In this document: positions 5,837-60,359 of the stretch, piece after piece
Position numbering within the stretch: position 1 is the first letter of the stretch
Layout: every line of letters starts with the position of its first letter
Assembly (NCBI GenBank): GCA_963924565.1
Contig: OZ004609.1
Coordinates: 26,846,001 to 26,910,000 of the forward strand
Direction: 5' to 3'
DNA length: 64,000 bases
Origin: Ascidiella aspersa
Lineage: Eukaryota
Translations under genes and position numbers: made by a program
Notes under the pieces: model-generated
What the model saw: the letters and a program-made list of their open reading frames with translations, nothing else
The model's database searches: none
Told to the model about the DNA's origin: nothing

Positions 5837-8455
5837 TTACGAGCTGTTGGCCGACAGTCTGCTGCGTGGCGTCGACGGCGCCGAGGCCTGTGTCGCCCGG
5901 TAAGCGCTGTCCACCGTCAGCGACGTCGCTTCGCTTTCCATGGCCAGCGCTACCTTGGGGCTCACGGCTGCTGAATTGTTGTTTTCCCGTCGCGGCGACT
6001 TGAGTCCGCCGTTGGTGGCGACTTGGCTGTTTTCGTACGGCCGGTATTCGCACTCGAGGTCGTCAAGATTGCCACCACCCGTCTTGCTGCCGCCTTTGAG
6101 GTAGCGCACGTACAGCAGACCGACCACTACGAGACAGAGCATGAGGCAGCTGAGAACGCCGACCACAATAGTCAGGTTGCCGATCTCCTTTTCAGCGTTG
6201 GCCAGCTCCGAGCCGCCGACGCCGCCCATCGTGATGTCGGGGTCGAGTTCCTCGCAGCGCCGCCCGCGGAAGCCGGGTCGACACTCGCAGAAGGGGTTCT
6301 CCTCGTCGTCGACAAAGTGCCGGCAGGTGCCGCCGTTAAAGCAGAAGTTCTGGATGTTGCAGGACACATAGTGCGACTCGAGGCGCGGCCCGAGAACCGT
6401 GACTTGCGTGGTGCCGCGTGCTGTCGCGCCGTCGGCGTTGCGCACCTGGCACGAGTAGGCGCCGTTGTGGAAGTGGCTGGCCTCCATGATCATGACGAAG
6501 CTGTTCTCCATGTCTTTGGTGTTCACGTGCAGCCCGGTCATCATGCGGTACTCTGTCGTGTCGATGTTCGAGCCGTCCTTGGTCCAGGTCACCTGCGTTA
6601 CCGGCGAGCTGCTCTCGACGCGGCACTGCAGCAGCTTGATCGAACCGCGGTAGAAGATCGTCTTGCGCGGCATCGTCACCTTCATGGCGCAACTGGTCCG
6701 ATCGCCGCCGCTGGAGGCGCACAAGCGCTCCCATATCAGCTGCCGGTGATTGCGGCGCTTGGAAGACACCGGCGCCTCCATGGCCCTGAAACTGCGCTCC
6801 TCGTCCGACGCCAGTGGCTTGAGCATGAGGATGAAGTTGTCATCCATGCGAAGCGCGTCGAGGCACGCAGCGGTCGGCTTGCTGTCCCCGGCCACCACGC
6901 CCAACTCGTCCAGCGCCTTCAGGCCGCCGTTGTGCTGCTCCCAGATGTGGTCAACGAGAAATCTGCCAAAACAAATCAGAGTTTAGTAATTTTTATGAAA
7001 TTTCATGATGAAATATTTTTGTTCTATATTTGCTAGAACAGAAGCGAGATTGACGATTTATTTATTATGCGAAAAGGGCGACATAATGTTATTAATCTGC
7101 AGAAGCAGGAAAATACATGCTGTCAAAAACATTATTCGCAGTCCAGTTGGCGTAAATTGTTTTTAAAAAGGCGTAAGGAATCAAATCGACTTGTCAAAAA
7201 TCCCAGTCGCAGAATTTTGCAGGCCAGCATGTGCATGTACAGTTTGTGATACTCGGGCCTTAAAAAACTACTAATGATTAAAAAAAACTAATGATTAACA
7301 GCGGCGGCGCCGATGCCAGGACCCAGGTAAGCTTTGCATCGCACCGAGGTCTCGTGATGTTTATTGCGGTGTATGTGATTGTGCCTGGACGTGTCGGGCT
7401 CCCGTCAACCCGGGTGGCCTTCCAAACAAGGCAACTATATCGCTGTCAGGCGACTTCCGGCAAATCGCCTTGGTCCTATGTTTGCTCTGCCAAGTGCGGG
7501 CCTCCTTAAAATAGCCGAAATTACTGCGGCTGTGTTATGATAACTATAGCGCTGCAGGGGACCCAAGGCACCGCACTGCGACAGTAAAGCGTGTTTGCCC
7601 GCGGGGCCAACGACCCGGCCTCCAGGGACGCCCCCCCCCCCCCTATTATTTTCGGCTCCGTCACTCGTCGGCGCCACTCATGTGGCACAATCGCCCCCGA
7701 GCCGAGCGCGCCCGGTAATCCGGCTCTACTGTTGCTTTTATCGCTATCTATATAAATGTGCAGATCGGCGGTAAGACGACACCTCTTATCTCCGCTGGGT
7801 GATTGTGGCCTCGCTTTTAGCGCTGAGTGACGCAAGGCTCGTTAGCCCGGCTTTTGGTCGGCAAACAAACCTCTTTCGTCGCTACGTGCCTTTGTTGTTT
7901 AAACCATGACACTCGAAAATTCGGTTTCGCGGGGTGGGGCGATTCCGTATGATTATTGCCTTGATTTATGGAAGTCTGCACTTTAATTTTTTTCGATCGG
8001 GGTTTGTTATAAGCGAAGCTCCCCCTTGCAAAAGCGGCCACCCGTGGACTTTCCTTGATGTTAGATTTATTGCAAAGGTTAACTCCAATCCAAAATAACT
8101 TAATGTGCCAGGCGCGACGCAAATGCAAGTCACCACCCACTTTCCAGCCTCATTACCCGCCCCTCCCTCGCTAATGGCAATCACGTCGAATTAGCAAAGC
8201 GTAATTAGATTAGGCGTGGGTCCAAAAAAAAAAAAAAATTCTTAAGTTCTCCCCGTGTTTTATTTTATCTCACCTGTACTTTCCCTTGTATAAGCCGATG
8301 AACTTTGCCTGAACCACCACGTCGCTGTCTTGCAACCGGCCTAACCTCGCCACCTGATTCTTGCGGTTCAGTTTTGGGATCGGACAGTTCTGTGCCTCGA
8401 TGGCGGCCGGGCAAAGCGCCAGCGCCATAACAATGCTCGCGATTATCGTATACAT
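5837..8455 (-). CDS. NRG: Neuregulin-like (GGF2/NRG2-type) membrane-anchored EGF-family ligand, 2 coding exons, 435 aa
   Basis: Exon 1 is 8455..8274 (MYTIIASIVMALALCPAAIEA signal peptide; donor AG|GTGAGA, phase 2). Exon 2 is 6962..5837 (acceptor ttttggcag|A) and joins the 5837..6904 ORF in frame. It encodes an Ig domain (LQC..VTWTKDG..GAYSC), an EGF domain (HYVSCNIQNFCFNGGTC..CECRPGFRGRRC), a TM segment (LTIVVGVLSCLMLCLVVVGLLYV) and a Ser/Thr-rich tail. Codon usage is strongly GC3-rich. Confidence 0.88.
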
Positions 8456-39811: not shown

Positions 39812-40078
39812 GGCGCTCTTTCACTATTGTACGTGAAAAGTTATGCAAAAAACAAAACAAAATAATACCGCATACCACAACGCATATTGTTAGGGTTAGG
39901 CTGCGGGTTAGCGTTTAAGTGAGGGTGGGTGAAGTAATATTATGTTTATTATTAATAATAACTTGACCCACCCTCAACCAAACGCTAACCCTAACCCAAA
40001 CAATATCCGTTGTGGTATGCGGTATTTGAAGAAAGTTTTTTTTTTATTAATTTTCACGTACATAAGTAAAAGAGCGCC
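39812..40078. mobile_element. Palindromic GGGTTAGG MITE-like element (copy 2), inside an older GACTTGACTT-type element spanning about 39600-40250
   Basis: Arms ggcgctcttt..tgtacgtgaaaa..aataccgcataccacaacg and cgttgtggtatgcggtatt..ttttcacgtaca..aaagagcgcc. The flanks resemble 62872-63333 in reverse orientation. Confidence 0.75.
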
Positions 40079-40905: not shown

Positions 40906-41185
40906 AACAGTAAAATAATCTAGCAAAGCTAGCAATTCAGGTCAGACACATTAACCAGATCTTAAAAAGATATATATATATTTCGCCAACTAAGGCATCG
41001 TCAGTATATCTGAATAAAAACAAACGCAACAGTATAAGAATGAGTCAGAAAACATTAAAGTTAAAATATGTTTTTATTCAGATATACTGACGATGCCTTA
41101 GTTGGCGAAATATATACATATCTTTTTAAGATCTGGTTAATGTGTCTGACCTGAATTGCTAGCTTTGCTAGATTATTTTGCTGTT
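40906..41185. mobile_element. Near-perfect 117-bp inverted repeat carrying minimal hammerhead ribozymes (Penelope-like)
   Basis: Arms 40906-41022 and 41069-41185 with two mismatches and a 46-bp spacer. Confidence 0.8.
40968..41011 (-). ncRNA. Minimal type I hammerhead ribozyme motif
   Basis: Reads AGAUAUA-CUGACGA-U-GCC-uuaguu-GGC-GAAA-UAUA-UA^UAUAUCU. It has an intact core, a 7-bp stem I, a 3-bp stem II and a palindromic stem-III loop. The mirror copy on + at 41080-41123 has one stem I mismatch. Confidence 0.65.
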
Positions 41186-43216: not shown

Positions 43217-43223
43217 TATAAAA
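43217..43223 (+). promoter_or_regulatory. TATA box of the TIL-repeat gene
   Basis: TATAAAA in a GC-rich context 58 nt upstream of the ATG at 43275. Confidence 0.65.
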
Positions 43224-43274: not shown

Positions 43275-46200
43275 ATGAAGCTCGTCGTCAGTTTGTGTCT
43301 GACCTTTGCTCTCATATCAATCGTTCTGGCCGGAGGACCCTACCCACCACCCCCGCCGCCCATCCCACAAGGTAACTCACTTGTAAAACAGGTGCGCCAC
43401 TTTGGCCGCACTACGGTTTTCTTAATGGTTTATGTCGTCCGTAAGGAAACTTTGCTAAACCACACCAAATGCGCGCAATATCGCACGCTAAACGTGGAAG
43501 CTATTAAAACTGAGATGCCGCTTCATTTTAACTTCGTACTTTTGAAATAATTATTGAATATATGATGTGAATGGTTTAATAAAACCGAAAGTTATTTATC
43601 TGTTTTATTATTATATTTTGGTTTTAATTGTTTTTCAACCTCTGTATTTCATCCCCTTCTAATATTTTGAAGTCCCCTTCTAATATTTTGAAAATTCTCG
43701 AACCGATATTTCAACTCAATCGTATCGACGTAAATAACTTTTAAGGGCATTACGCGATAACGACATTTTGATTTATTCATTGAACCAACAACGCATATTT
43801 AAGATTCTGTGAGTTTAAAATATTTTTTTTTAAATGAAGTAAAAAACTTTATTTACGAAAACGAATGTTAAGACTTTGTTTAACTTTTATATCGCATGCA
43901 AATAAAACTATCTTTTAAAGTTGCATCTGGGTGTTTGGTGCTTAAATTTGCCATAATTGGTTGTTATACGTTTTGCAGTTTACATTCTGCTATTTTTATG
44001 ACATAAGGACGACATTTTATTGCACTTTAACATAACGTTTTTTTTTAATTAAGTACCTGAAAACACGTTGACGACAGAAGGTAGTTGTATTTATTAACTG
44101 TGTAATAGACAGGTACATTTTAAAATTCTTATACATTAATTGTCTTCAAAATGTGTTACGTATTCTGACTGCAATAAAACGATCGACGAATGTTAAACTG
44201 TTACAAATACACTCGCTTAGCCTTTACCGCCCACGATACGTTACACCAGTGGTCGGCAAACTTCTTTTGTCGCGGCCCAAAGCACTATTCAGATATTTGT
44301 TTCAACGAAAAATATTATACGGCGCCTCGATGCCCAAAACACTGTCATGCCATAACGTAAAACATACTATGAAAAGAAGAATATACGCCCGAAGCGCGAA
44401 AAAATTTGCGTTTACATATAAAGTTGACAAAAAATGTAGTTCGACAGGCTCTCAGGACCACATTTGGCAAGAGGGTCTGAACAACACTGAGATCATATAA
44501 ACAATTCTTAGACACACGAACAAAAAAGTGCAATAAATGTACGGCTATCACGCGGTCCACAACTACATCATAACACTAATCTATTCAAAATTGACCCGCG
44601 GCCAACTAAAAATGGCTCTGCGGCCAAACTGTTTGCCGACCACTGCGTTGCACAGTGGTACACAGAAAATGGAGATAAATATATTATACGTATGAACAAA
44701 ACTATAAGTTTCGCCCAGCAAGAATCTATGTACACCTATTGACGTCGACCCGATTGGTTACTTCGCAATCAATAAAACGAATTTATTATGACAGAAAAGT
44801 TGCCATATGTAAAAACCTACGATTGGGAACCTTGTAGGCGCACTCATATAATAACGCCCAATAGAACTTTAGGTCATCTGCTGCCGTGTCAAAATAGATC
44901 ATGGCGTGACATTGCAGATTTTCGCTTATGTTTCTGTATACATCGGCTAGAATTAGCGCTATTTAGTGGCGATTAAGTGTGTTTAGTTTGGCAATAAATG
45001 CGAATTGCGGGAGTTTTCCGCAATCAATAGTTAACTTAAAGCTTTTTTTTCAAAAGGACAGAAATGACTATGGTACACAAACAAAGTCATTGCTTCAGGC
45101 GAATTAACTTCTCAGCACTACGCGACTTAACTCAACTCATAGCATTAGCAAGAAATCGGACGTTAATAGCCAGGAATGAACGTCACGCTCTACCTGTTTA
45201 CAACTAGCTGTATTATTTAATTAGAAATTCGGCTTCCCAAACTAAAAACTTCGTGCCCCAGGCTTATTTGTTCCATTGAAAATGGTTACTATTTTTGTTC
45301 GATTCTCTTAACTCTACAATTGGTGAGGTGACTCACGTCGATGACCTTAGTTGACATGGTTTTCTAATTTAAAAAACAAATTCTAACACCTATGTTTAAA
45401 TTTCGTATAATTTCTAGTGTACAACAAACGTAGAGACAAAAATAAATAAGACCAAACATACAGAAACCAAATTGACTGTGTCCAAAATAAAGTTTAATAA
45501 GTCCTTATTCGTTTTCAACAATGAAAGATGTATGTTCATATTAAAGACCTACAGGCTAGACCTTTTTAACTCCTTACTCGCTTACTGTGTTAATCAATTC
45601 CTAACAAACGTTTTATTTGGAGAAGTGTCCTTTATTGTGTACCGTAAAATACAAATAAGCCCTTTGAATTGAACATTTGCACTCAGCGATAGCAGTTATG
45701 TTCATGTTTAAAGTACTTTGATTCGTACACGATTTCTTAACAGCCGTGTGCCAATCGTGCACAAAATAAAGCGAAAACATTGAGTTGTAAAGTCGTTTTT
45801 AACAACTACAGTTTATGTTAAAAATAACTTAACTTTTCCAGCCAACATGCTCTTAGATTATAGAGAATCCCAAATGACGGAACGCTTACGATTTTTCAGG
45901 AGACTGTCCAACCGATCGTCCACCCCAGGTATGCCCCGTGCCGCCGTGTGCTGACAAAAAGTGTCCAAGCTTTCCCGGTTTTCGCTGCGTCAATGACCAA
46001 TGTGGAGGTTGCTTTGCCAAGCTGTACGATGGCCCTGTACCACTGGACGAGAAACAGTGCAACAGTAGGTCTTGTTGCTGCTGTTTTTTGTTGTCCAAGA
46101 GACACTTTAACGATTACTTCAATTGGCGATGTCGTATATAACTAAATTGTTTCCCTTTGGTATTTCCTAAACTGTACCTACTCCACCTTAAATCAAAATA

Positions 46201-49200
46201 ATCATGTAGCGATACTAACAATGTTCCAAATTCGCCCCACCTGACTGACATACAAGATTCTACATATAGGCCTACATCGTATTCCAATTGCTTAAGGATA
46301 GCATATATTTGTAACGGCTGATGTGTCCCGTGTCTAAGTTTATCTATTAAACATTATTTCCAATGCTGTTACAATATATTATGTCGTTACGAATACAAAC
46401 AGACTAATTGTCAATTTGGCTTATCTGCAGGGTGCCCGTCAAACCAGGTCTACTATCAAAGTTTCAGGCCCTGTCTGAAGAGGTGTTATGGTGTGCCGAG
46501 CCATTGTCCTGACGGTTGTTTTCCGAATGCTGGATGCTCTTGTCTCCCAGGCCTATATTGGAACGGGAGAGAATGTGTGGCAAACTGTGGTTAGTGGCCA
46601 CTCTTTATTGTTTTAAATTATTGTTTATTTAAAATATATATGGGACAACTTAAAAGCCTAGTTCTACAAACCATGATGTGTTCGGCCTTAAATAGTTAGG
46701 ACTAATTTAAATTTTCTTTATAGTTTGCAAGCGAAGGATAAAATACATGCAACCAAAATCACTGAGGGACCTTATTATGTAGATGAAGACAAAATATGTT
46801 TTAAAAGTTTATACACTTTTAAAAAAATTTGTACTCAGGCTTTTGTTTTTGCTTTAATGAGTTGCAGGAATTATACTAATATTTTCTTTCTAAAAACAAT
46901 AAAGTCGAATTGCAAACCCAACACGTGTATTTTTGGTCAGGCCCACATAAAAGCTGTTAACGTATCCCGTTAAACAGAAGTTCTCCTGACCTTTCGCGAT
47001 AATTAAATTCAAAAACTGAGTTCAGAAGGTCGTTAGTCGTTGTGCCGGGACAGACGGAAATTTTCTGTTGACACCAAGATATTTTTAACCTAATTGATCT
47101 CCTGGAACCCAGTAATGCGCTACGGAAACGTCCAAATCTTAATATCCCGAAAGTCGGAGACGACTGGTATTTTTACCACGACTAATTGTCACGTTGTCTA
47201 GCTTCGGGTCTCTGAAAGCTCTTTGCAGCGATGAACGTATGCAGCTGCAATCGTCACTGACCTTTAACACAAACCATTTATTAATTGTGTATTGCCATGT
47301 ACGTGCTTCACGGTGTAGGATAATATACACATGCGTCGCCTAACGAAAGTAGACCGCGTTGATATAATAGGCGCTCACTGATACTGAACTTTAATTGAAG
47401 GTCCTTGTCCGCCCGGAGTTGCTCTGGCTAAGTGCACTGCCGACCCGTGTACGAACGCGGTATGTCCCGCGTTTTCCGACGCCATTTGTAACAGCGATTT
47501 CTGCGGAGGCTGCAATGCAATTTTTACCTTGGGAGGCAACAAGTTGACCAACTTTGATTGTAACCCAAGTAAGTGAGAATTTAGTAACTGCTAATAAACA
47601 AGTTACTGGGCAAGTTCGTGTATGTGCCAAAATGACATGACTTATTAAAAAACGAAGGCGTGGTTTTATTATGGGTCTAACAGAAATCCCAAATTGATTA
47701 AAAGAAAACTGCTTTGTTTGTTACGGCATTTGTTCGCTATTGCTACAGGAAAAATATGTTGACAAATGACAACCCGATTAATTCTAAACATATCGAAATT
47801 AAATAGCCTTTCGAATTTCTAATGGTTTTGTTAAAAACAGATGTTTCCCTTTTCGTGACAAATATCAACCCTGATATTCCTAACGCAGTTACTTTAAGTG
47901 ATAAACATATCTAGAACAGTTTCTCGCATCATTCTCTATTTTCCTTAGGTAGCTTTCGTTTTGGGGAACATAAGACGAATATAGGAGACAAACATTTTTT
48001 CGTATTTTTTACAAAAAAGTTTCAATCATGCTTTTAGCGAACTGTCCTCCCGGCTCGACCGTCGTCAATTGCCTGGTGAACCCCTGCGACGGCCACCACT
48101 GCCCGCAGGTGCCTGGCGCCAAGTGCGTGGCCAACTTTTGCGGTGGCTGCAACGCCGTGTTCTACGACAACGGTAGAAAGCTGAAGGCCGCCGAGTGTGT
48201 GACCAGTAAGTTTATCGTTATCTTCCTTATCTAAGGAATTTAATTTGTTCGATTGCAAACCCCTTCGAACTAAACGAGCTTAAGTCGTTGTAGACGCCAA
48301 TGTCTCGCAATCCTTTGGGCGTGTAGGACGTTTCGCTCAAGAAATGTGTAGGACGGGATGTTTCATAGTGAACCAGCTATAGACTTATTTTTAAGCGTAT
48401 TAAGTGTAGCTTTGCTAACTATTTTGGTGTAACATTTTAGTAGCTGAAAGGAGCCTACTCCCACACAGCAGTATATGCTAAATCTAGACAAAACTTTATT
48501 CCACATTATTCATATCGCACGGGATTTAAAAACCTTTAGGCTGCGATTTATAAGTAAAGTCTTAAATGAAATAATACAAGGTATCGAGTTTACACCTTAT
48601 TTATGCAAGCTGCTTTGCGAACGGCATCAAACTATAAAAGACATCAACGTAATTAAAAACTGACAAGCCAAACATCGACTCAAACTGTCAAAATCCATCC
48701 AACGCAATTCTTCGAATTATACGCCAAACGACATCGTATCTTTTCAGAATGTCCAGGCGGGAAGACCTATCATCGCTGCAAGCCTTGCGAGAGCGATTGC
48801 CTCCCGGGTCTCCCGCGTCCCGAGCTCGGGTGCGTTCCCGGCTGTGCGTGCCCCAAAGGAACCTTCTGGAGCAAGAATTGGAAGCACTGCGTCAAGCGCG
48901 AACACTGCAGTGAGTAAAGTGTTTTTTTCACGACCGCTTTGTTACGATCATTTTTACAATCGTTGTATTTTTAAGTGTATTAGTTCTTATAACCCATTGT
49001 TGTATTAGTCGATGATTAGATTGCCCAGGTAACTCGAAATTGGATGCTAAAAAAGCCTAAGCTCTTTATTCTGTAAAAAAGTATTTACGATATTTTAAAA
49101 CTTTATTCGGGTGCGCTTCTATGTTTCTCTCAAACCAACAGCGTCAAGGTATTAGTTCGTTAAAATAATTTCATCATAGAACTTAAGCATGATAAACGCT

Positions 49201-52200
49201 TATTTTAACTAAAGAATGCAAAATTCTTCCTAAGTGCTTCATGAGCTAGTGTTTAAAAAAATCCTAATACTTGACGCATAATGGGGCTTTAAGAAATACC
49301 ATTTTTAAAAGCATATGTTTGGCAGGCTGTCCAAAGCACCAGATCTACCATGCGTGCAAGCCGTGTGGTAACGACTGCAAGTACGCCAACGACCCCCTCA
49401 CATGCATTGCCCAGTGCCAACCCGGGTGTGCTTGTCCGCGCGGAACCTACTGGAACGAGGCGACCAAAAACTGCGTTCAAAAAGCCCAATGTGGACAAGG
49501 TTGGCGTTTTACGACAGCTAATTGGTATTAGTAAATAGGTAGTTAGTCGCTCGTCGGTCCTACTGTTGTTCTGTGCAAAAAGCAAACTCTTGCAGTCGTT
49601 TTGCTGTTACGACGCAGAGGTTGAGCGACGGTCTCAGTATGGCCAAGGTTGTGAGTTTGAAAATGATAGTAGGATAGGTTTTTCTAGCCTTGTCTTGTTG
49701 CATTTTTATCGTGAAATGGATAACTGGTCGAATTTTGACAACAGCACAAAACCACAATACTAACTGGTATGACACAGGGATAATACAACACTATATATTA
49801 TAGTGATCTAGGCAAAAGCTCTGGTATTAAGAGGTTACCGCTAGACAACGTCTTACACTTTGTTTACTAATTTAAATTTGGTGCATGATTCAGAAAATAC
49901 CGCTTTATTTACAACGGTTATTGCTTATATGAGAACAGTAGTTAGATAACCGGAACAACGCAAGTATGTCAAGTTGCAAACTTTGTCATACCGAGTTGAC
50001 TTCGTATTCAAATTTAAAAACATCAAATTTAACCTTCAGGTTCCAGGGACATCGTTGGGTAGTTTGTCTTAGCACTTTATATGTATATCACTGTGGTATG
50101 ACAACGTATACTTGTCCCTCGCGCACATGCAGAACTCTTCCTTCAGTTCAACTAGCATCCTTTCTGGGAAACATTCTATTATACAACTATTATGACAATT
50201 TAATTGATGTTTTTACTCATCTTTGGTACAACCAAATGCGCTTTTCATTTCATCCACACACATAGAACGAAAAGTCAATAAACTAGGCTGTAATATGAAT
50301 AACGATATATTAGTTTAATTTGGGTTTGAAATAAAGAAAAATGTTATATTAACAAATTACTATTCATAAAACACACAATAAAAGGTTATGTAATTAAGCC
50401 AAGTTAACGTTTGCGCTTATTTGTGAAACTAATAACACCCCTTTAAACTAAAGTGTTGCAAATTAACGCGTATCCATTGTTTAGCAGTCGTTTGAATTAT
50501 CTACATTGCCTATATTTTTCTTTGCAGTATGTATTTCCAACCAAGTTTACTTCCCAAAATGCAAGCCTTGTTTGAACGAATGTGACAAAAAGTTGCAAGT
50601 CTGTCCTGCCATCTGTCAATCTGGTTGTTCGTGCCCCCGAACTATGAAATGGGACGGCGAGAACTGTGTGCCCGCCTGTCCTAGACAGTGTAAGTTAACG
50701 TGACATGGAAAATCCAAAATCTAAAAATGAGTTTCTTGTTATGTATATTGCTTTCACATCCGTAAGTTTTCGAAATGAGTTTTACGCGATTGCTCTATCG
50801 CGTGATTTTCGGTTCTTTGAAACGCTACCAAATTATGTGTCTCAAAATTGTTTGATAAAAAATTCACAATTGGTAAGATATGGTATATATTTCTGTGCTT
50901 GTTGTCAAACAATTCGTGCGTGAAATCATTTGCCTGGTTACGTCAAATAAACCCTTGCGCTATAGAGCAGGGGAGTGTAAAGTGCTACCCGCAAAGAGAT
51001 AATATGTGGCCCGCAAGGGGCTTTAGTAATGGCCAGGCGACAGAAATACTAATGGAGAGTATAGTTTTGCAGCCAGAAAAACTTACAGCTAAATAAGTTG
51101 GGTTTCGCCCAGTCAATTTGTCAAGTTTTTAATGCAAATCCATCGAGAAAAATTAATAGCACCTATTCTGGGTAAGATGTTGTCGGTTAACGAGTATTGC
51201 TTCAGTATATATGACCTGGCTTGGCATTTCCTAAACGTTACACGTAAGCAATGGGCATATTTTCCAGCACGGAATCACTTCAAAACTGACGCTAATGAAC
51301 ACTTATCAACTTTATTGAAAGCATTTTAGATAAATGGGACTGGATCAATGACAAATGCCTTTTACCCGCGCTCCAATTTGCACACACACTTTGGCCTGTT
51401 AAACTGACCCATGGGACTTGGTCTTTAAGGTGGCAATAACTAATAAAGGTATTTGCTTGTTCACAAAGTGCGATTTTGTGTTGGCACGTGGATAATCCGC
51501 GTTTTTTGGCCCGCCAGCAACGGGTACTTGCGACATTTCGCATTTCGCCGAAACGCTGTGACATATAAAATACGTCTAGGATCGGGATTCGCGATTTCCT
51601 GCACGTTCGTTTCTGTTTTTGTCATTGTTTGGCAGCATTGTAACATTTCCTTTTGTTTAGTGTGTCAAAAGAAAGGACAAGTGCTGCATAAGTGCAAGCC
51701 GTGTGGTCGAGAGTGCAAGTACGCCTACAAACCTGTAGCATGTACCTTGGAATGCAAGCCGGGCTGTGCCTGCCGCAAGGACTACTACTGGCACCCATCT
51801 AAAAATGAATGCGTCCGAAAGTTACAGTGTCTACCATCACCAACTGGTAAGATTTTTTTAAGGCAAAAGATTTTCAAGTTATAAAATGACACCAAATTAC
51901 CAACTGCGGTAAGAACATTCTCTGAACGCAAAAAAGAAAACGCGTCTTAATGTTTAACAGAAATGCGTTAACGCGTTACTTATATTGCTTCACATGCGCG
52001 AATAAAGGCCTGCGTCGTTATTGCAATCCCTGCACTCGTTTTGTCTGCAAACAATTTACAGCCTTTGAAACTCGAAGTTCATAAATTGTTCTTCTTTTGG
52101 ATTTTGTGCCGTGTTTTAAAACTTGTTTGTTTAATTTTATACCCTTAATCAATACCTTTAAACATCCTACAGCTTCCGAAAGCCTACGCGCAAAAAAGGC

Positions 52201-55200
52201 GTTGTTTAATGTGGCGAACTTACTGTAAGTTGACGAGATTAAACCTAAATGCTATCGCATTTACCAAAAATATTTCAGAATAAATATAATAATTTTCACC
52301 GGAAATATGTTGCAAAACTCGGTGTTCGGACTTATCCGTGAATTTCGTTTTATGCGAAATGCTACCTAGTTTTAATAGGTCGTAAACAAATGTTTACGTC
52401 GCAACTTGCTTTGCAGTTTGCCTCAGAAAAGGCCAAGTGCCGCATGTGTGCAAGCCATGCGACCGCGACTGTAGGTTCGCATACAACCCAATCGCCTGCC
52501 GCCAGCCGTGCAAACCGGGCTGCGCGTGCCGCAAAGACTTCTACTGGAACTCGAAGAAAAACATGTGCGTAAGAAAGAACCAGTGTCCACGCCCAGCAGG
52601 TAAGTGATATCAAGATTTCTAAGAAAAAAATAATAAAAAGAAAAAGTCTAATCTTCGCACTCCTCGACAAAAGTACAGTTATAGTTAGCGTATATAAATT
52701 AAACAGTAAACACTGTTACTAAACGCCGTTACTGTTTAATTTAAACAAGGCTTAATGCGCCACTTGTTCAGGGTGCCCAAACGGACAAATACCGCATCGG
52801 TGTAAGCCTTGTGGCCGAGATTGCAAGGACGCTCTCAAACCAACCAAGGTCTGCACTTTGGCCTGCAAGCCTGGATGTGCGTGTAGGAAAGACTTTTTCT
52901 GGCACCCCACTAGACGTACCTGTGTACGCAAGTCACAGTGTCCACGAAAACCTCCCTCACGTAAGTAGAAATACCATGTTAAAGATATTATTCCCCAGCA
53001 ATTCACAATAGCAATTACATCTTAGGATAAAACCAAAATAATAAAGTAATGGTTAGATATGCGTTATCTAAGGTTAAATGTGATTAATCATTAAAAGGAG
53101 GTTGTAGTTGAGATTCGAACAGTGTAGGTGCTGTTTTTGAGGTATTTATGAACCTAAATTAGAAATATTAGGCTATTTGAAATGTTTTCTGTACAGTTTC
53201 TTCTTGACCTGCTACGTTTTGTAAAAGAAAATAGCTTACAGCGTTCAGGTTCTACAGGCTGTAGAATACTAACTATTATTAACTGTAGGGCTGCACTTTT
53301 TAAGTTAAATTAGGGAAACACAACTACACAAAATTATGTTTCTCGAAATTTAGTTTTTTCAATTTTAAATCACTGTTCTAGGCAGCCTAGTATAAATTAA
53401 AATCGCCACTTGATTAGTTTGCCGCAACGGACAAGTGCTGCATCGATGTAAGCCTTGTGGCCGAGATTGTAAGGACGCCTTCAAACCAACCAAGATCTGC
53501 ACTTTGGCCTGCAAGCCTGGATGTGCGTGCAAGAAAGACTTCTTCTGGCACCCGATTAGGCGCACCTGTGTACGCAAATTACAGTGTCCACGAATACCTC
53601 CCTCACGTACGTAGAAATACCATGTTAAAGTGATTGTCGCCACAATAACTTACATCTTAGCATGAAACCAACAGATCAAATTCATTGTGTTGCTGTTGAA
53701 TATGCGCATTCTAAGGTAAAATGCGATTCATCCTTAAACAAAATAATAGTATATGTATTTGGAATTCGGACAGTTTAAGATTCTGTTTCAGGGTATTCAT
53801 CAAACTAAAAATTGGATTTTAAACTTGATTTATAATGGTGTTAGCACAGTTCCTGCTCGTCCTGCTAAACTTTGGGCGTAGAAAGCTCCCTGTAACAACA
53901 TACAAACAACACTAAATTTCCGAGAACCAACGCACTGTAAAATACGAAATTTGTAGAACAGAAATTAATTAATTTAATTCAGGAAGATAATATTACAAAA
54001 TTTTATTAGTTCTTCAAGTTGTTATTATATCAAAAAAAAAATTCCCGTCCCTAATAGGTTTAATGTCACTGTTCTAAATATTATAATATAACATTACCTT
54101 TTTCATCGCCACTTGTCCAGAGTGCCCCAGCGGACAAACGTTGTATCGGTGTAAGCCTTGTGGCCGAAATTGTAAGGACGCCCACAATCCGTTCAGTGTC
54201 TGCACTTTGGACTGTAAGCCTGGATGTGCGTGCAAGAATGACTTCTTCTGGCACCCGATTAGGCGTACCTGTGTACGCAAGTCACAGTGTCCAGGAAAAC
54301 CCCCTTCCAGTAAGTAGAGAAATGCCGTGTTAAATTAACTTGCCGCCAGCACTCCACGATAGCTTACATTTTAGCATGGAACCAAAATATTAAACTCACT
54401 GTGTTACTGGTTAGATATGCGTTATTCAAGCTTAAATGTGAATAATTATTTAATAAACAAGCAGTTATAGTTGTGATTTGTAGAATTTTAGATTTAGTTT
54501 CAGGGTATTGATCAAACAAAAAATTAAATTTTAAACTTGATTTGAAATGGTGTTAGCACATAGTTTCTGCTTATCCTGCTAAAATTTTCATTAACAACAG
54601 ACAAACAACGCTAAGTTTCCGAGGACCCTACCACTGTAAGACGAAAGTTATTTGTAGAACAGAAACATATTTATTTAACTTAGGAAAATATTATTACAAA
54701 AGCTTGGTATTTCCTCAAGTTGTTATTATTCCAAAGCTTTCCTCCCGACTCTAATAGGTTGAATGTCACTGATTTCAAAAATTATAAAGAAAAAAATCTC
54801 ATCGCGACTTGTTCAGGCTGCCCCAGCGGACAAGTGCTGCATCGGTGTAAGCCTTGTGGTCGAGATTGTAAGGACGCCCACAATCCGTTCAGTGTCTGCA
54901 CTTTGGGCTGCAAGCCTGGATGTGCGTGCAAGAGAGACTTCTTCTGGCACCCGATTAGGCGTACCTGTGTACGCAAGTCGCAGTGTCCACGAAAAATCCC
55001 CTCCGGTAAGTATAGAAATGCCATGTTAAACTAATGTGTCCCCGACACTCCATAATCTCTTACATCTCAGCTTGAAACCAAAATATTATATTCATTGTGT
55101 TACTGTTAAATATGCGTTTTCTAAGGTAAGTTTCGTTTCATCCTTAAAAAAAAGCAGTTATTCATGTAGGGATTTGAACAGTGTAGTATAGATGCTGTTT

Positions 55201-56119
55201 TTATTTTATAACCTAAATTGTGGATTTCGAGCTAAATCTAAATTTTGTCCGCCGCGCGGTGAGTGAAAAACGAATCCTAAATATTCTCGAGACTGTACCC
55301 TATGTGCCACCAAACAAATCATATGTTGCATTGTTGGAAATTGTTTATTCCTCCGTTTCTAAAAATCAGCTTAAAAAAAAAGATAATAACCTCTACACTT
55401 TGAAATAAATACATATATATGTACACTGTGCCTGTCACTTTATGGTTGTTAAAATATTTACGTCCGATAGTGCAGCAACCAGTTGTGTACTGTAGGTACA
55501 CTTACCTGATCAAAATGACCGGTGTAACCAACCCCCTAGCAAAATCTTGACTATAAGGCCGCCTAAGCGTCCACCCGCTACTATAAAATCTGTTTTGACA
55601 AGGCACTGCACAAACTCCTTTTTTGCAGCACCTTTTTTAACAGGCGCTATTTAACTATTCGCAGTCGTGCCAAAATGTCCCCCCACCCAAGTCTACTCCA
55701 GCAAATGCATTCGTTGCGTGCCAAAGTGTCCCGGCCCAGTGCCAACCATCACTCCTTGCACGAAGCCCTGCATTTCCAGGTGCACTTGTCCCCCTCGAAA
55801 GTTCCTCAACCCCATAAGTCAGCGGTGTGTTTCGTTGGCGAAATGCCCCCGGGTTATAGGTAAGTGTTTAAACTGCACGCTGCTCGAAAAGCTCATTTTA
55901 CTCCTGTAAATAATAAACAGAATCTATAAGAAGCACGACTTCCAGATAATTGGCTAATAAATGGTAGAGTTAATTGAACAAAATAGTTGCGCAATACTCG
56001 TTCCTTAGTCAGAATACTACTTTTGTTCTACGATACAAAGCAAACCTGATAGATAAACATTTTAATTCATAAGATACTTCGTGTTATCCAAGTTTAACTC
56101 GTTTCTGTTTTTAGGATAA
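43275..56119 (+). CDS. Secreted cysteine-rich multidomain protein: 11 TIL (trypsin-inhibitor-like) domains plus 3 CGGC modules, 16 exons, 859 aa
   Basis: Exons: 43275-43371 (signal MKLVVSLCLTFALISIVLA plus polyPro), 45900-46064, 46431-46589, 47401-47568, 48038-48205, 48748-48909, 49326-49499, 50528-50689, 51661-51846, 52417-52599, 52772-52960, 53418-53606, 54121-54309, 54817-55005, 55665-55859 and 56115-56119 (GA TAA). All introns are GT-AG phase 1 and all internal exon lengths are multiples of 3. TIL-type spacing is C-x8-C-x2-C-x3-C-x7/8-C-x3-C-x3-C-x-C-x12-C-x5-C. Confidence 0.9.
44247..44645. mobile_element. hAT-type MITE in intron 1 of the TIL gene
   Basis: Perfect 15-bp TIRs CAGTGGTCGGCAAAC/GTTTGCCGACCACTG, flanks cgttacac/cgttgcac. 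Confidence 0.85.
52750..55200 (+). repeat. Four tandem exon+intron units of about 650-700 bp
   Basis: Four 189-bp exons of high identity. Intron sequence is also alignable (gtaagtagaaataccatgttaaa...ttacatcttag...gaaacca...tatgcg...ctaagg). Confidence 0.9.
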
Positions 56120-56585
56120 TCGTCAACAAAGAAAATATCAAGCAGCTGTTTCGACTCCTTTCTGTGGATCCAACAGACGACGATGTTTATTCGTTACACA
56201 AATTTCACCATCAAATATACGTCACTCAAAGCATATGTAACATGTCTGTAATAACATAGTGTTTTGAAGCAACCGACCTTCCAGAGAAGCTTAGAAGCCT
56301 TAGATAAACGTTTCGTTTATTCAGTGAATGCTACAGCTTTAATATTGAAAGGAGGTTATTTGCATATAATAAAACATCGAAAGACGTTGAATTCACGAGG
56401 CTGCAATGGTAATAAACTTACGTTTAGAATAACGTACACCTCTGACAAGGCTTTGCGTCAATATATGTTCATACTGAGGACCTAATAAAAAATGCTACTC
56501 AAATTAAATTGCGAGAACGAAAGTACTCTTTTGGACTTTAAAACAGTCACAGAACCAAAAATCCAAGAAATCACTCGATATGATT

Positions 56586-59331
56586 TCACACCTTTCGGTA
56601 AACGTAGAGCTTCGTGGTCAGGTTGTCGATGTTTTTTAGATGGATGACCTCCTTCATTTCGGCCAGCTCAGCCTCCTTGTTGTTTATTAACTCGTTGGTG
56701 ACATCCTCGAGTTGCGCTAAGTAGGTTTCGACTCCGGCATGTCCTCTGTTCCTCAGGTTGAAAATGAGGTATCCGCCTCGCTTCACAAGCTTAAGCATGC
56801 CCTGTTGGTAAAAGCACGTAGTAGTTTTGACAAATGCAATGCGTCTCAAGGGCAGCAAACATCGACAAGTTTGTTGCTTTCCGAATAATGAACAACCCCA
56901 AAGTTAGACCACGAGGAAAATTAACGTAAGGCCTAATTACAAATTTAACAATTATATTAGACAGATGATCGTCAAGTAGGCCTATGTCTTTAGCTTGAAC
57001 GCTTGGTTAAAAATGTTATATTTTTGGAACGACGTTTGTCCAACTTTTTTCGCGGCGACCCATACATATACTAAGCGCTACTATAACAGCAAAGCCAACT
57101 ATCTTCACTAAATATTCTGTGGGCTTATAAAGTAAACAAACATAAATAGGACAGCAATAATAAATTAAATGTAATTAATATGAGCCATGACTTTTCCGTC
57201 CGCAATTGTCTCAAATTTTAGAGAAATCTCGCTGAGAACCAATCCTAATAAACCTAACCGTATATAACTAGTGCAGTTGACCCTCCAACCAAATTAAACG
57301 CCGGGCCAATTTTAGGTATCGGCCCATGGGTTAAGAAACAATGTTTTAGAACTTGAACCACAAAAAGTGTGGTTTGGAAATAAGCACTTCTAAGCTATGA
57401 ATTACGTTTTAAAAAATATTTTAAAACATAAATTAAGAAACAACATTTTGATAATATTTTGCAAATAAGTGTTTTCTATAGCCAAAATACACAGCATATA
57501 GAGCAAATTAAGTGCTATCAAAACGTTTGATTTTATTCGTTTAATACAGTGATACAGACCTTAATAGATTGCGGCGGCAAGTGATTAGGATATAACGATC
57601 CCACACATGTGACAGCGTCGTAGGAATCTTCAGGCAATGGGATGTTTTCTTCTACCATGTGGCAAATGATTAACCTAATAACGAATTAGTCGTGATTAAT
57701 TAGGTAAACCATTTCTAAGTTTTAAGTCCATTTCCCCCCTTTATAAATCCTTTTATGATTTTAGTGATAAGGTTAAAAGGTACAATAAAACGACAGGCAG
57801 ACATGATAAATGTAAACGTTCTAGGTTATAATGTAATTTGCATAGGGGCGTTAAATTTTTCGAAGTTTCCTTTTTTAAGACCCAAATATTTCGCCGGCAT
57901 AAAATGCATCCAGATATACTAAGGCTAAGCCAAACCTTCATTATTGATAGTTGCAGGGTATAAGGCGCTTTTGAGAAAAAAAATGTATCAACGTAGTTAA
58001 AATACCCAGAAAAACATGGACTTTGCCTCGTGCTCAGTTTATAAAAAGAGGTGGCGGGTCTTATGATTTACACTCGCGAAATTTGTCGCCCCTGATCTAG
58101 TTTAACAAAGTGTTGCAGAAAAATCAGCTATTTTCCATTTATTTAAATTCAGTTTCCTTAAATTTGTTTTTTACGTAAATAGTAGATGCAGAGATGTTTC
58201 ACGATTAATAAAAAAATCTGTTTTCTTGTTTCGAGTTTTCAGCTTTTATGAAAAGTCTACAGCTAAAAAAAAACGTATTGAAAAACCTGTGAATTAAGAG
58301 ACTTAATATTGCTTTGAGGTCGCCTCATTTAAACCTTTGACCATGCACCAGTAAGTAACTAAATTGCGAGGTTTTTTAATTATAAGAAACGTCACCTTAA
58401 AGCTAATTCTCTTTTACTTGCAACGCAAAGCATTTCCATGTTGGCGTCCAAAATGTCGATAATCCCTTTATAATTTCCAGTCTTGCGCAAATGAAACGGT
58501 ACGATCCCAGTACCTTTTAAAACATAATATGTACCGGATGTGTTAAATATACTTAATTGTGATAAATGTTCTACGATACACTAATGCAGTGGTCGGCAAC
58601 TGTGGGCCGCGGCCCAAAAGTAGGCATTTAAGCTATTTTTAGTGGGCCACTGGCTTATTTTTTAATATTTTAGTTTTTTCATGCAGTTGGGGCCGCGTGA
58701 TAGCGGTACATTCACTATACTGTATTTTAAAAACAGGGTGCCTGAAAGTTTTTTTTCTTTTGCTTATAGTTGCATCACACCGTGCAATCAACGCCTATCT
58801 ATAAGATCTATAAGATAGGCGTTGGTGCTATGCACCCTCCAAAAAATGTCAATAGCTCTTGAAATAGACTTCAATAGCTCTTGAAAAAGCATTTTGGGCG
58901 ACAAATGCGTTTACCTACCACTGCACTAGTGTTTCAATTTTGAAATAGAAGGTTATGAAATGTAAATTGTTGGTGTATTTCAAATAAAAGTTCTGGTTTT
59001 GCTAAAGCCTAGGTAAAATTTTGTCTAGTAAAATCAAAATACGAACTTAAACAAGCTGCAAATCGCTACACAAAAACTTAAACAAAAAATGTCGCGTTCG
59101 TCTACCTCCCGCAACGTCTAGTACAGAGCTAGTCTTCGAATTGTCGATGTACTTCAAGCAGACCAGTGCAGCCTCGCGAGTAACAATCAAACCCTGGTCG
59201 ACAGATTGCTGGTCGTATAACTCCGCCCGTCTCGTGTAAGCAGCCTGCGACTCTTCAAATGACTTTACCGCCAATCCAGAATCAGCAGCTTTCTTTGCCT
59301 CCACTGCAGGGTCGTTGCTACCTTTCTCCAT
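56586..59331 (-). CDS. METTL27: METTL27/WBSCR27-like class I SAM-dependent methyltransferase, 4 exons, 224 aa
   Basis: Exons: 59331-59106, 58513-58396, 57674-57560 and 56801-56586, with phases 1, 2, 0. Motif I VLDVAG|GTG spans intron 1. Also present are the N-terminal AYTRRAELYDQ, IDILDANMEML, SYDAVTCVGSL..NH and LVKRGGYLIF motifs. The family assignment is from recalled motif similarity, not a search. Confidence 0.8.
58587..58923. mobile_element. hAT-type MITE in intron 1 of the METTL27-like gene
   Basis: TIRs CAGTGGTCGGCAAC and TTTACCTACCACTG, flanks cactaatg/cactagtg, internal hairpin caacgcctatct..agataggcgttg. Confidence 0.75.
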
Positions 59332-60359
59332 TTTTTTGTTTTTATAAAACTGAACTAAACACACTTAAACAAAAAATGGTACCGTTACGCAGTTTTGTTT
59401 TGTGTTAGAGATTGTAAATTGAGGTTTACCAACTTACAAAAATAACCTGTAACTTGAAGAAAACTTACAAGTTAAGAACTTACGACTGATCAAGGTTTCG
59501 ATTGACAATAAAGAACTTTTTATAACCAAAAGTGGAAGTAGATTATTTCAAACATTCTATATTAACATTTTCATTTGAAAAAATACCGATTCAAGTTTTG
59601 TAGAAATAAGTTGACTATATTTTCTGGCAAACTTCACACTAACTGCTCAATGCAAATTCAGCATTTTACTTCTTTCTATTGCAATTCTAGTGTAACAGGC
59701 ATCAAGCCCCATTCGCTAAGGCATGTCTGCCATTCAACCAGCCTCCATAGTTTTAAGCGTTAAAAACTGCTGTTTATACCACGAAAATTTAACATTTACT
59801 CTTTTGCCCCTGTGCAAACTAACCTATCTTGATTGTTTCTACTGGGCCTGATTAAATTTGATTTTATCGGTCTCACAGCAATGCAACAAACCGCTTAACC
59901 TGAACATTGCTTCACGCAAAATATTGTGCCAAACGATAGTTAAAAATATTTCGTTGAAATGGTGTGATGTCGGTAAAAAAGGTGCTTGGGCGCGTAAAGA
60001 ATGGCACGCACACACACACACACGTGTGCATACTGCAACCATTTCAAGTTAATCACGATTAAACACACACACGCGTGCGCGTTTGTTGATTTTTTTTGTC
60101 ACTGTTTAGCTGTAGTAGGGTGTCAAATTGGGTTCGCACTTACGTAACGTTACGTTACGTGCTGTGGCGTATGTGCAGAAAAATGCGAATGGCCGCTCTG
60201 AGAATAAGTATACTGTATTAACTGGACTGTAGTTTGCAAAATGTTAAATATTAGGTTGGCTAGCTTGGTATTTTAAATTGTGGCAAACCTAATTTACTAA
60301 AACAACAACGCTTTTTTCCGCTTGTCTAGAATTCTACAATTTATCCATGTACAGAAACG

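Follow-up and report, generated by a model that had tools for sequence, protein, structure and literature searches.

What is a sea squirt's genome doing with a run of fourteen cysteine-rich modules, each on an exon of its own? The question is raised by a gene of the ascidian Ascidiella aspersa that lies on the forward strand of contig OZ004609.1 (assembly GCA_963924565.1), with its coding part between positions 43,275 and 56,119 of a 64,000-nucleotide stretch (contig positions 26,846,001 to 26,910,000) that we refer to as the window. Three of its modules carry a ‘CGGC’ motif and eleven are of the TIL type. In our view the product is likely a secreted protein that is tethered to surfaces and inhibits, through multiple heads, serine proteases of the chymotrypsin, elastase, and subtilisin types, a reading that the sequence evidence places slightly above even. 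By module content, the gene is a member of an uncharacterized ascidian TIL+CGGC family, a relationship missed by the preliminary description of this locus.

One module per exon

Sixteen exons assemble into an uninterrupted frame of 859 amino acids, composed of a signal sequence, a poly-Pro spacer, three CGGC modules, and eleven TIL modules, with all 15 introns bounded by GT..AG. Each of the 14 module exons (159–195 nt) encodes one module, in the order CGGC, TIL, CGGC, CGGC, and ten TIL; every one is a multiple of three in length and in phase 1-1, and together with the signal exon they make up the whole frame. The predicted mature protein has a mass of ~92.5 kDa, a pI of 9.1, and a composition dominated by Cys (15.7%) and Pro (13.1%), with Ser at 4.0% and Thr at 3.9%. 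A Ser/Thr-rich mucin tract, N-glycosylation sequons, and paired-basic furin-type sites (RxK/RR) are all absent from the 859-residue frame. When the whole window was searched for Cys-rich exons bounded by AG..GT in all three phases, the exon run was recovered on the plus strand, along with, in the rest of the window, one unrelated 6-Cys stretch; the five longest introns held no additional exon candidates. The exon layout, module order, symmetric phase-1 exons, TATA box, and eleven Cys5–Cys6 loops given in the preliminary description all reappear in this model (Table 1).

Transcription was sampled in one same-species RNA run, of which about 6%, i.e., 7.8 million records, was read. Thirty-three reads fall on positions 44,700–56,550, and they include the junctions between exons 2 and 3 (4 reads), 13 and 14 (7 reads), and 15 and 16 (4 reads), all on the expected strand; no read of this run lies on exon 1. 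The locus is a real, expressed gene. The single transcript unit proposed earlier is borne out at these three junctions, and for the remaining 12, exon 1 to exon 2 included, we infer it from the gene model, as we do one transcript across all 16 exons.

TIL modules and their Cys5–Cys6 loops

The Pfam TIL profile (PF01826, curated cut-off 24.5 bits) matches all 11 TIL-type exons, ten of them over the cut-off and exon 8 below it (E 0.002), in agreement with the identity first assigned to them. Nine of these modules have the full set of ten conserved cysteines; the exceptions are exon 3, in which Cys2 is missing, and exon 6, in which Cys5 is, so that two cysteines have lost the residue with which they normally pair. 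The Cys2–Cys6 pair is given in the accessible text of PMC10004685, which also describes P1 as the residue that governs specificity in TIL inhibitors, a group that blocks subtilisin and elastase, and reports that P1 swaps alter specificity in BmSPI38/39.

In ten of the 11 modules, Cys5 and Cys6 enclose a closed five-residue CxxxC loop, whose P1 residue is Leu in five cases, Ala in two, and Lys, Gln, and Asp in one each. For comparison, we used the TILs linked to VWD or C8 domains in the same genome, which yielded 29 loops from 34 stretches, and counted L, M, F, Y, K, R, and A as specificity-type P1 residues, a set chosen post hoc. Such residues occupy seven of the nine distinct window loops but only 5 of 29 VWD/C8-linked loops (p 0.0017); with the CTLxC duplicates collapsed, the ratio becomes 4/6 versus 5/29 (p 0.027), and across VWD-free genes it is 19 of 42 distinct loops versus 5/29 (p 0.013). 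Well-known canonical inhibitors carry Thr-Leu-Glu/Asp at P2-P1-P1′, and a P1′ Pro is generally unfavorable for serine-protease binding. The bias relative to mucin-type TILs of the genome, post hoc as it is, favors the inhibitor array envisaged in the preliminary description, whereas the broad spectrum attributed to it is weakened: five of the ten loops have P1 Leu and all fall within a single clade of internal duplicates, Pro stands at P1′ after both the Lys and the Gln, one loop presents Asp, and one module has no loop.

The C-terminal half of the chain is as strongly basic as had been described, with a net charge of +8 to +12 per ~60-residue head in exons 9–15, and these cationic heads carry aromatic Phe/Trp/His patches. 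Exons 11–14 are recent copies of one another, being 83–90% identical in pairwise comparison, with introns 61–75% identical against a background of 45–62%. Their P2 Thr and P1 Leu are invariant, while P1′ varies (A, A, D, G). All six pairs among them have dN/dS between 0.22 and 0.53; pairwise dN/dS gave no sign of positive selection, and the four exons are under purifying selection. DNA contigs show at least eight exonic differences; of the eight listed, five are synonymous, two change a residue, and one, in a split codon, is synonymous when translated by hand. In a tree of 44 hand-picked TIL modules over 58 columns (11 from the window, 24 from paralogues, and nine from a Phallusia relative described below), exons 9–14 form one clade (support 98/98). 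Thus, taken together with the similarity of exons and introns, the cationic P1-Leu heads are an internal expansion that arose by exon-plus-intron duplication within exons 9–14. Exon 15 clusters instead with the terminal TILs of Phallusia and two paralogues (94/88, node not starred) and is, from this placement, a distinct terminal TIL type common to them.

An ascidian family and its CGGC module

The A. aspersa genome (308.6 Mb) contains at least 88 TIL matches, at least 91 VWD matches (PF00094), and 68 C8 matches (PF08742), with 150 of 209, 150 of 157, and 95 of 95 candidates scored, respectively. Neither profile finds a VWD or C8 domain in the window, as the preliminary description had stated, and an identity as a true zonadhesin, mucin, or von Willebrand factor was rejected for lack of both. 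Seven other loci carry TIL runs with no VWD or C8 nearby (C3:17.85, 21.81, 24.0, 30.41, 30.77, and 35.78 Mb; C4:31.68 Mb), and in three of the seven TIL and CGGC are mixed, in runs of 20, 8, and 7 modules. Phase 1-1 module exons recur in the paralogue loci; the exon search there was confined to phase 1-1, except at three loci tried in all phases, where complete modules were in phase 1.

Several of these loci have peculiarities of their own. The run at C3:30,405,389-30,424,750 (minus strand) comprises ~23 single-exon TILs, with five near-identical copies at its 3′ end and a 5-kb gap that may mark two genes; 0.35 Mb away, C3:30,768,153-30,770,246 (plus strand) is a four-module inverted duplicate of that 3′ end. 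At C4:31,685,373-31,691,395 (minus strand), the CGGC exons of a TIL+CGGC gene stop before the last cysteine, so that the module border is shifted relative to the gene in the window. At C3:24,005,556-24,008,945 (minus strand), six phase 1-1 TIL-like exons have only 8 Cys, and five of the six carry furin-like sequences (RKKR, RERR, RRRR, RNRR), then His/Gln, in the reactive-loop stretch, a feature that suggests processing-triggered opening or assembly.

The best stored match for each of the 11 TILs in the window is a Phallusia mammillata protein named ‘zonadhesin’ in the database (CAB3267843.1, 709 residues, 42–50% identity), itself uncharacterized and, like the A. aspersa protein, without VWD or C8. 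It repeats the build of our gene, with a signal sequence, a Pro-rich spacer, interleaved TIL and CGGC modules in the order TTGTTTGTGTTT, and a similar terminal TIL. The loops CPAIC and CTLDC are also present in it, and one of its TILs is 49% identical to exon 8. The two proteins differ in module order and count, and the Phallusia chain lacks the cationic CTLxC expansion. Since its CGGC and late TIL modules are for the most part nearer to the C3:35.78 Mb locus, the gene in the window is probably a paralogue of CAB3267843.1. Clavelina and Ciona ‘zonadhesins’ that combine TIL with thyroglobulin-1 match other loci.

The second module type proved to be far from restricted to ascidians. ‘CGGC’ is used here as the name of a motif only: ‘CGGC domain’ is also the name of a prokaryotic Pfam family, but the three CGGC exons have no Pfam match at E 1, the Pfam CGGC family is not found among 16 members from this genome at E 5, and that identity was rejected. 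Single-exon word-index protein searches returned no matches, a weak piece of evidence that was overturned by a profile search. A profile built from the 16 genome sequences and run against 1.84 billion cluster representatives matched at least 1,321 clusters at E 0.001. The 30 matches looked up by name include proteins of animals (a nematomorph, bivalves, a rotifer, a tardigrade, a ribbon worm, a sponge, echinoderms, a hemichordate, amphioxus, and ascidians), of protists (foraminifera and a euglenid), and of an FCB-group bacterium, under labels that include kielin/chordin-like, papilin, and uncharacterized. Among 68 matches scanned with Pfam, the neighbors of CGGC are Kunitz, WAP, Kazal, TIL, pacifastin, thyroglobulin-1, Sushi, HYR, and EGF domains, and many proteins are without any Pfam domain; CGGC and TIL are combined in 5 of 150 matches. 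These profile matches define CGGC as a widespread, unnamed family, reported here as new and without a model in the copy of Pfam searched. No published description of the CGGC motif or module, or of an ascidian multi-TIL protein, was found in a literature search whose coverage largely excluded subscription journals.

In the predicted models of two CGGC modules (exon 4, predicted local distance difference test score [pLDDT] 94.8; exon 5, 88.4), a two-stranded sheet is accompanied by a short third strand. Each of five fold comparisons of these models ranked the Nerita versicolor carboxypeptidase inhibitor, NvCI (PDB 4a94_C, 5mrv_C), first. The scores fall under the tools' reliable level: Foldseek gives a weak match (E 0.57 and 1.6, template modeling [TM] score 0.41–0.46), and VIA-align, run against 48,161 chains, gives Z 3.5–3.6 over 43–44 residues (root-mean-square deviation 2.9–3.1, 27–30% identity), with the only other row at Z 2.1–2.2. 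There is no fold match above Z 3.6, which is no proof of a new fold. Among sequences, NvCI is not listed by CGGC profiles of 3, 16, or 32 sequences at E 5–10, sequence-profile searches of the PDB with the module gave nothing credible, and an Atlas search with a CGGC homologue returned only an unnamed rotifer cluster.

The cysteine pattern offers an independent view. According to the accessible text of PMC5511257, NvCI has Cys at 9, 15, 23, 27, 38, and 51 and a buried Trp42. Across 432 CGGC cores, the core cysteines are most often separated by gaps of 4, 7, 4, 2, and finally 12, and in 369 cores the fourth position after the fifth core Cys is aromatic. Thus, NvCI and CGGC agree in the gaps of 7 and 12 and in the aromatic core position, but disagree elsewhere (5 versus 4, 3 versus 4, and 10 versus 2); CGGC has two extra N-terminal cysteines and a two-residue turn where NvCI has a ten-residue loop. 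The alignments end in register, with residue 55 of the model on residue 53 of NvCI. Cysteine co-loss over 567 aligned CGGC domains yielded no usable pairing signal, since losses at the ends read as gaps; one domain lacking both Cys4 and Cys8 fits the Cys15–Cys51 pair of NvCI, a single case. Separately, 59 of the 432 cores represent a short variant, in which a cysteine takes the place of the core aromatic and the terminal hairpin is missing.

NvCI acts through a free two-residue C-terminal tail, as the accessible part of PMC6780499 describes. All three CGGC modules of the A. aspersa protein are internal and lack such a tail, and therefore the NvCI mechanism is closed to them unless the chain is cut. 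Sixty-nine relatives end in a CGGC module, with tails of 0–27 residues, exactly two in three proteins and none or one in 23; tails so variable argue, at the level of sequence, against a conserved tail function across the family. The only close relative of NvCI named in the accessible text is NpCI (PMC9966942). On balance, we lean slightly toward common descent of the CGGC module and NvCI, and give a lower probability to inhibitory activity in other members of the family. A bolder proposal, which we regard as speculative and would not bet on, is that CGGC is an ancient extracellular family from which the picomolar inhibitor NvCI arose, that its short-tailed chain-end members are metallocarboxypeptidase inhibitors, and that the ascidian chains become combined endo- and exopeptidase shields once they are cut behind a CGGC module.

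Readings of the chain and its place in the genome

The inhibitor that we favor would work as follows. Once secreted as a single chain, each intact TIL would offer its Cys5–Cys6 loop as a canonical, substrate-like loop, and about seven heads (five with P1 Leu and two with P1 Ala) would each bind one protease. Heads 5–11, rich in Lys and Arg at their surfaces, may keep the chain attached to mucus, tunic, or microbial surfaces of polyanionic character, and the unpaired cysteines of exons 3 and 6 could form a disulfide with one another or serve as covalent anchors. Having no free C-terminal tail, the CGGC modules would serve as compact spacers or binding modules; elsewhere they often stand beside Kunitz, Kazal, WAP, TIL, pacifastin, and thyroglobulin-1 domains, which counts for a link with inhibition.

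Chains of a similar design are known, and the nearest characterized ones are silk proteins and multi-TIL inhibitors of insects. In the accessible texts of PMC9432349 and PMC9745057, the modular zonadhesin-like silk proteins (silk Zons) that caddisflies and moths produce (e.g., Zon1-3, 6, and 8 of Plectrocnemia) are VWD-free, Cys-rich, TIL-like chains with many short exons and frequent duplication, for which inhibition or cross-linking has been proposed, including protection of the fibers against microbial proteases (PMC9432349). Zon2 of Plectrocnemia, with 16 exons, 92.4 kDa, and 17.4% Cys (PMC9432349), is close in size to the A. aspersa protein. Silk Zons are insect silk-gland products, for which those texts report no CGGC module, and they appear only as more distant matches of the Phallusia relative; the likeness is probably a parallel expansion, and orthology is unlikely. 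The Bombyx proteins BmSPI43 and BmSPI45-49, predicted inhibitors with 3–6 TILs and mixed P1 residues in the accessible text of PMC3278429, share with our chain the TIL fold, the mid-loop P1, and the mixture of P1 residues within one protein, but have fewer domains and no CGGC. The TIL fold and mid-loop P1 are also those of BmSPI38/39, AMCI (1ccv), BSTI (1hx2), and LL-TIL (8hwu), and in the accessible texts activity is described for the single-domain inhibitors only. Zonadhesin, gel-forming mucins, von Willebrand factor, and SCO-spondin contain TILs as well, but the protein in the window has none of their VWD, C8, or MAM domains and no Pro/Thr/Ser (PTS) region. A term search of the accessible texts of PMC13079984, PMC9953650, and PMC10980280 returned nothing relevant to known systems.

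A number of observations weigh against inhibition. The P1 set was picked after the loops had been seen, the loops are not independent of each other, and the paralogue set omitted TILs with a two-residue Cys3–Cys4 gap. P2 Thr enrichment alone is not significant (11/42 versus 3/29, p 0.087), CTLDC also occurs in one VWD-linked TIL of the same genome, and four of the 11 heads look poor for canonical inhibition. Among PDB sequences, the TIL profile finds the TILs of von Willebrand factor and MUC5AC at E 5e-9 to 7e-6, with the inhibitors LL-TIL, BSTI, and AMCI level or behind (7e-6 to 0.02); therefore the TIL domain alone cannot separate an inhibitor from a structural role. Kunitz, Kazal, and WAP neighbors also occur in matrix proteins, the whole multi-TIL precedents are predicted rather than assayed in the accessible texts of PMC3278429 and PMC9432349, and only 3 of the 15 junctions of the chain have been seen in RNA.

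Several of these points would suit a chain of structural beads, i.e., a disulfide-rich cross-linker or adhesive of the tunic, a mucus net, or the egg coat, in which the loops go unused and the modules are rigid, protease-resistant beads. The two unpaired cysteines and the Cys- and Pro-rich composition fit such a chain, as do the PDB ranking and the conserved terminal TIL of the paralogues, which could be an assembly module; moreover, adhesive and mucus proteins often contain TILs (the adhesive ones alongside VWD and C8), according to the accessible text of PMC8621496, and silk Zons carry disulfide-bonded peptides within fibers in that of PMC9432349. We nevertheless consider it rather unlikely, given the missing VWD, C8, Ser/Thr-rich tract, and sequons, loop residues unlike those of the structural TILs of the same genome, and the small number of reads in the RNA run. 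Less probable still is a directly antimicrobial or microbe-binding protein, whose cationic heads bind or damage microbes and inhibit proteases secondarily: the charge, the aromatic patches, and the recent expansion of exons 9–15 speak for it, but the chain has no furin-type site for the release of single heads, and most paralogue and Phallusia modules are moderate or negative in charge.

The two remaining accounts concern the exons rather than the heads. The preliminary description raised possible diversification by splicing; on this account, subsets of exons are skipped to give many isoforms of differing specificity. All 14 module exons are indeed symmetric, and related Styela and Clavelina proteins bear isoform names X1-X3, i.e., some alternative forms exist. 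Phase 1-1 is, however, the usual state of extracellular modules, it is shared by the paralogues, and exon duplication leads one to expect such symmetry. None of the 15 junction reads listed skips an exon and all join neighbors, at very low depth and hence low power, and skipping would change little where half of the heads share one P1. The splicing account is thus highly improbable, and the best explanation of the one-module-per-exon layout is a record of exon duplication and shuffling, not a splicing switchboard. That the exons are split among two or more neighboring genes we find scarcely credible; the 12 unseen junctions leave room for it, but the run has a single signal exon, TATA box, and stop exon, the longest introns hold no further candidates, and both module types share one chain in the Phallusia relative, and on these grounds it was rejected. 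The tethered, multi-headed inhibitor is the reading that we retain.

The features of the gene are collected in Table 1. Its first intron contains a high-copy insertion resembling a miniature inverted-repeat transposable element (MITE), with terminal inverted repeats and a near-perfect 8-bp target duplication, which we take to be hAT-like; a related end is present near 58,575-58,935 of the window. Two further elements, a 117-nt inverted repeat (98% complementary, 46-nt spacer) at 40906-41185 and a nested hairpin with TTAGGG-like units at 39812-40078, are probably foldback/MITE elements. Downstream, a convergent gene on the minus strand (56586-59364), two exons of which have no Pfam match, presumably encodes a methyltransferase-like motif; its RNA reads span 56,184-56,800 on the opposite strand, near or over the 3′ untranslated region of the TIL gene. 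A long minus-strand exon at 5837-6982, with Pfam Ig_3 and EGF and a hydrophobic, membrane-like stretch, is in our assumption neuregulin/vein-like.

Table 1. Features of the TIL+CGGC gene, in window coordinates.
Feature	Position	Strand	Evidence or remark
TATA box TATAAAA, 52 nt 5′ of ATG	43217..43223	+	sequence; function inferred
Exon 1, coding part: hydrophobic signal-peptide-like 19 aa, poly-Pro spacer, phase-1 donor	43275..43371	+	link to exon 2 inferred
MITE-like high-copy insertion, intron 1	44246..44645		DNA-contig depth 100-250x flank
Exon 2: CGGC module 1, 8 Cys, net -1	45900..46064	+	junction to exon 3, 4 RNA reads
Exon 3: TIL 1, 9 Cys (Cys2 lost), loop CPDGC	46431..46589	+	Pfam TIL 26.2 bits
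Exon 4: CGGC module 2	47401..47568	+	model pLDDT 94.8
Exon 5: CGGC module 3	48038..48205	+	model pLDDT 88.4
Exon 6: TIL 2, 9 Cys (Cys5 lost), no closed C5-C6 loop	48748..48909	+	Pfam TIL 32.6 bits
Exon 7: TIL 3, loop CIAQC, P1 Ala	49326..49499	+	Pfam TIL 38.9 bits
Exon 8: TIL 4, loop CPAIC, P1 Ala	50528..50689	+	Pfam TIL 18.6 bits, E 0.002, under cut-off
Exon 9: TIL 5, loop CTLEC, P1 Leu, net +9	51661..51846	+	Pfam TIL
Exon 10: TIL 6, loop CRQPC, P1 Gln, P1′ Pro, net +11	52417..52599	+	Pfam TIL
Exon 11: TIL 7, loop CTLAC, net +12, recent duplicate	52772..52960	+	Pfam TIL
Exon 12: TIL 8, loop CTLAC, net +12, recent duplicate	53418..53606	+	Pfam TIL
Exon 13: TIL 9, loop CTLDC, net +8, recent duplicate	54121..54309	+	junction to exon 14, 7 RNA reads
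Exon 14: TIL 10, loop CTLGC, net +10, recent duplicate	54817..55005	+	Pfam TIL
Exon 15: terminal TIL 11, loop CTKPC, P1 Lys, P1′ Pro, net +11	55665..55859	+	junction to exon 16, 4 RNA reads
Exon 16, coding part: last Gly codon and TAA stop	56115..56119	+	RNA junction
Three AATAAA polyadenylation-signal candidates, 3′ untranslated region: 56368, 56411, 56484	56368..56489	+	sequence; use inferred

Taken by itself, the gene is one more multi-TIL chain, of a design known from insect silk. It is relevant to ascidian defense, and it corrects the labels ‘zonadhesin’ and ‘kielin/chordin-like’ attached to a VWD-free ascidian family. The wider value lies in the unnamed eight-cysteine CGGC module, common across animals and protists, with a predicted fold that points to NvCI. 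If the two share descent, NvCI would gain an origin, a missing domain would get a name, and many carboxypeptidase-inhibitor scaffolds would come into view; if CGGC is the parent of NvCI, its short-tailed chain-end members would form a large and so far unexploited reservoir of metallocarboxypeptidase inhibitors.

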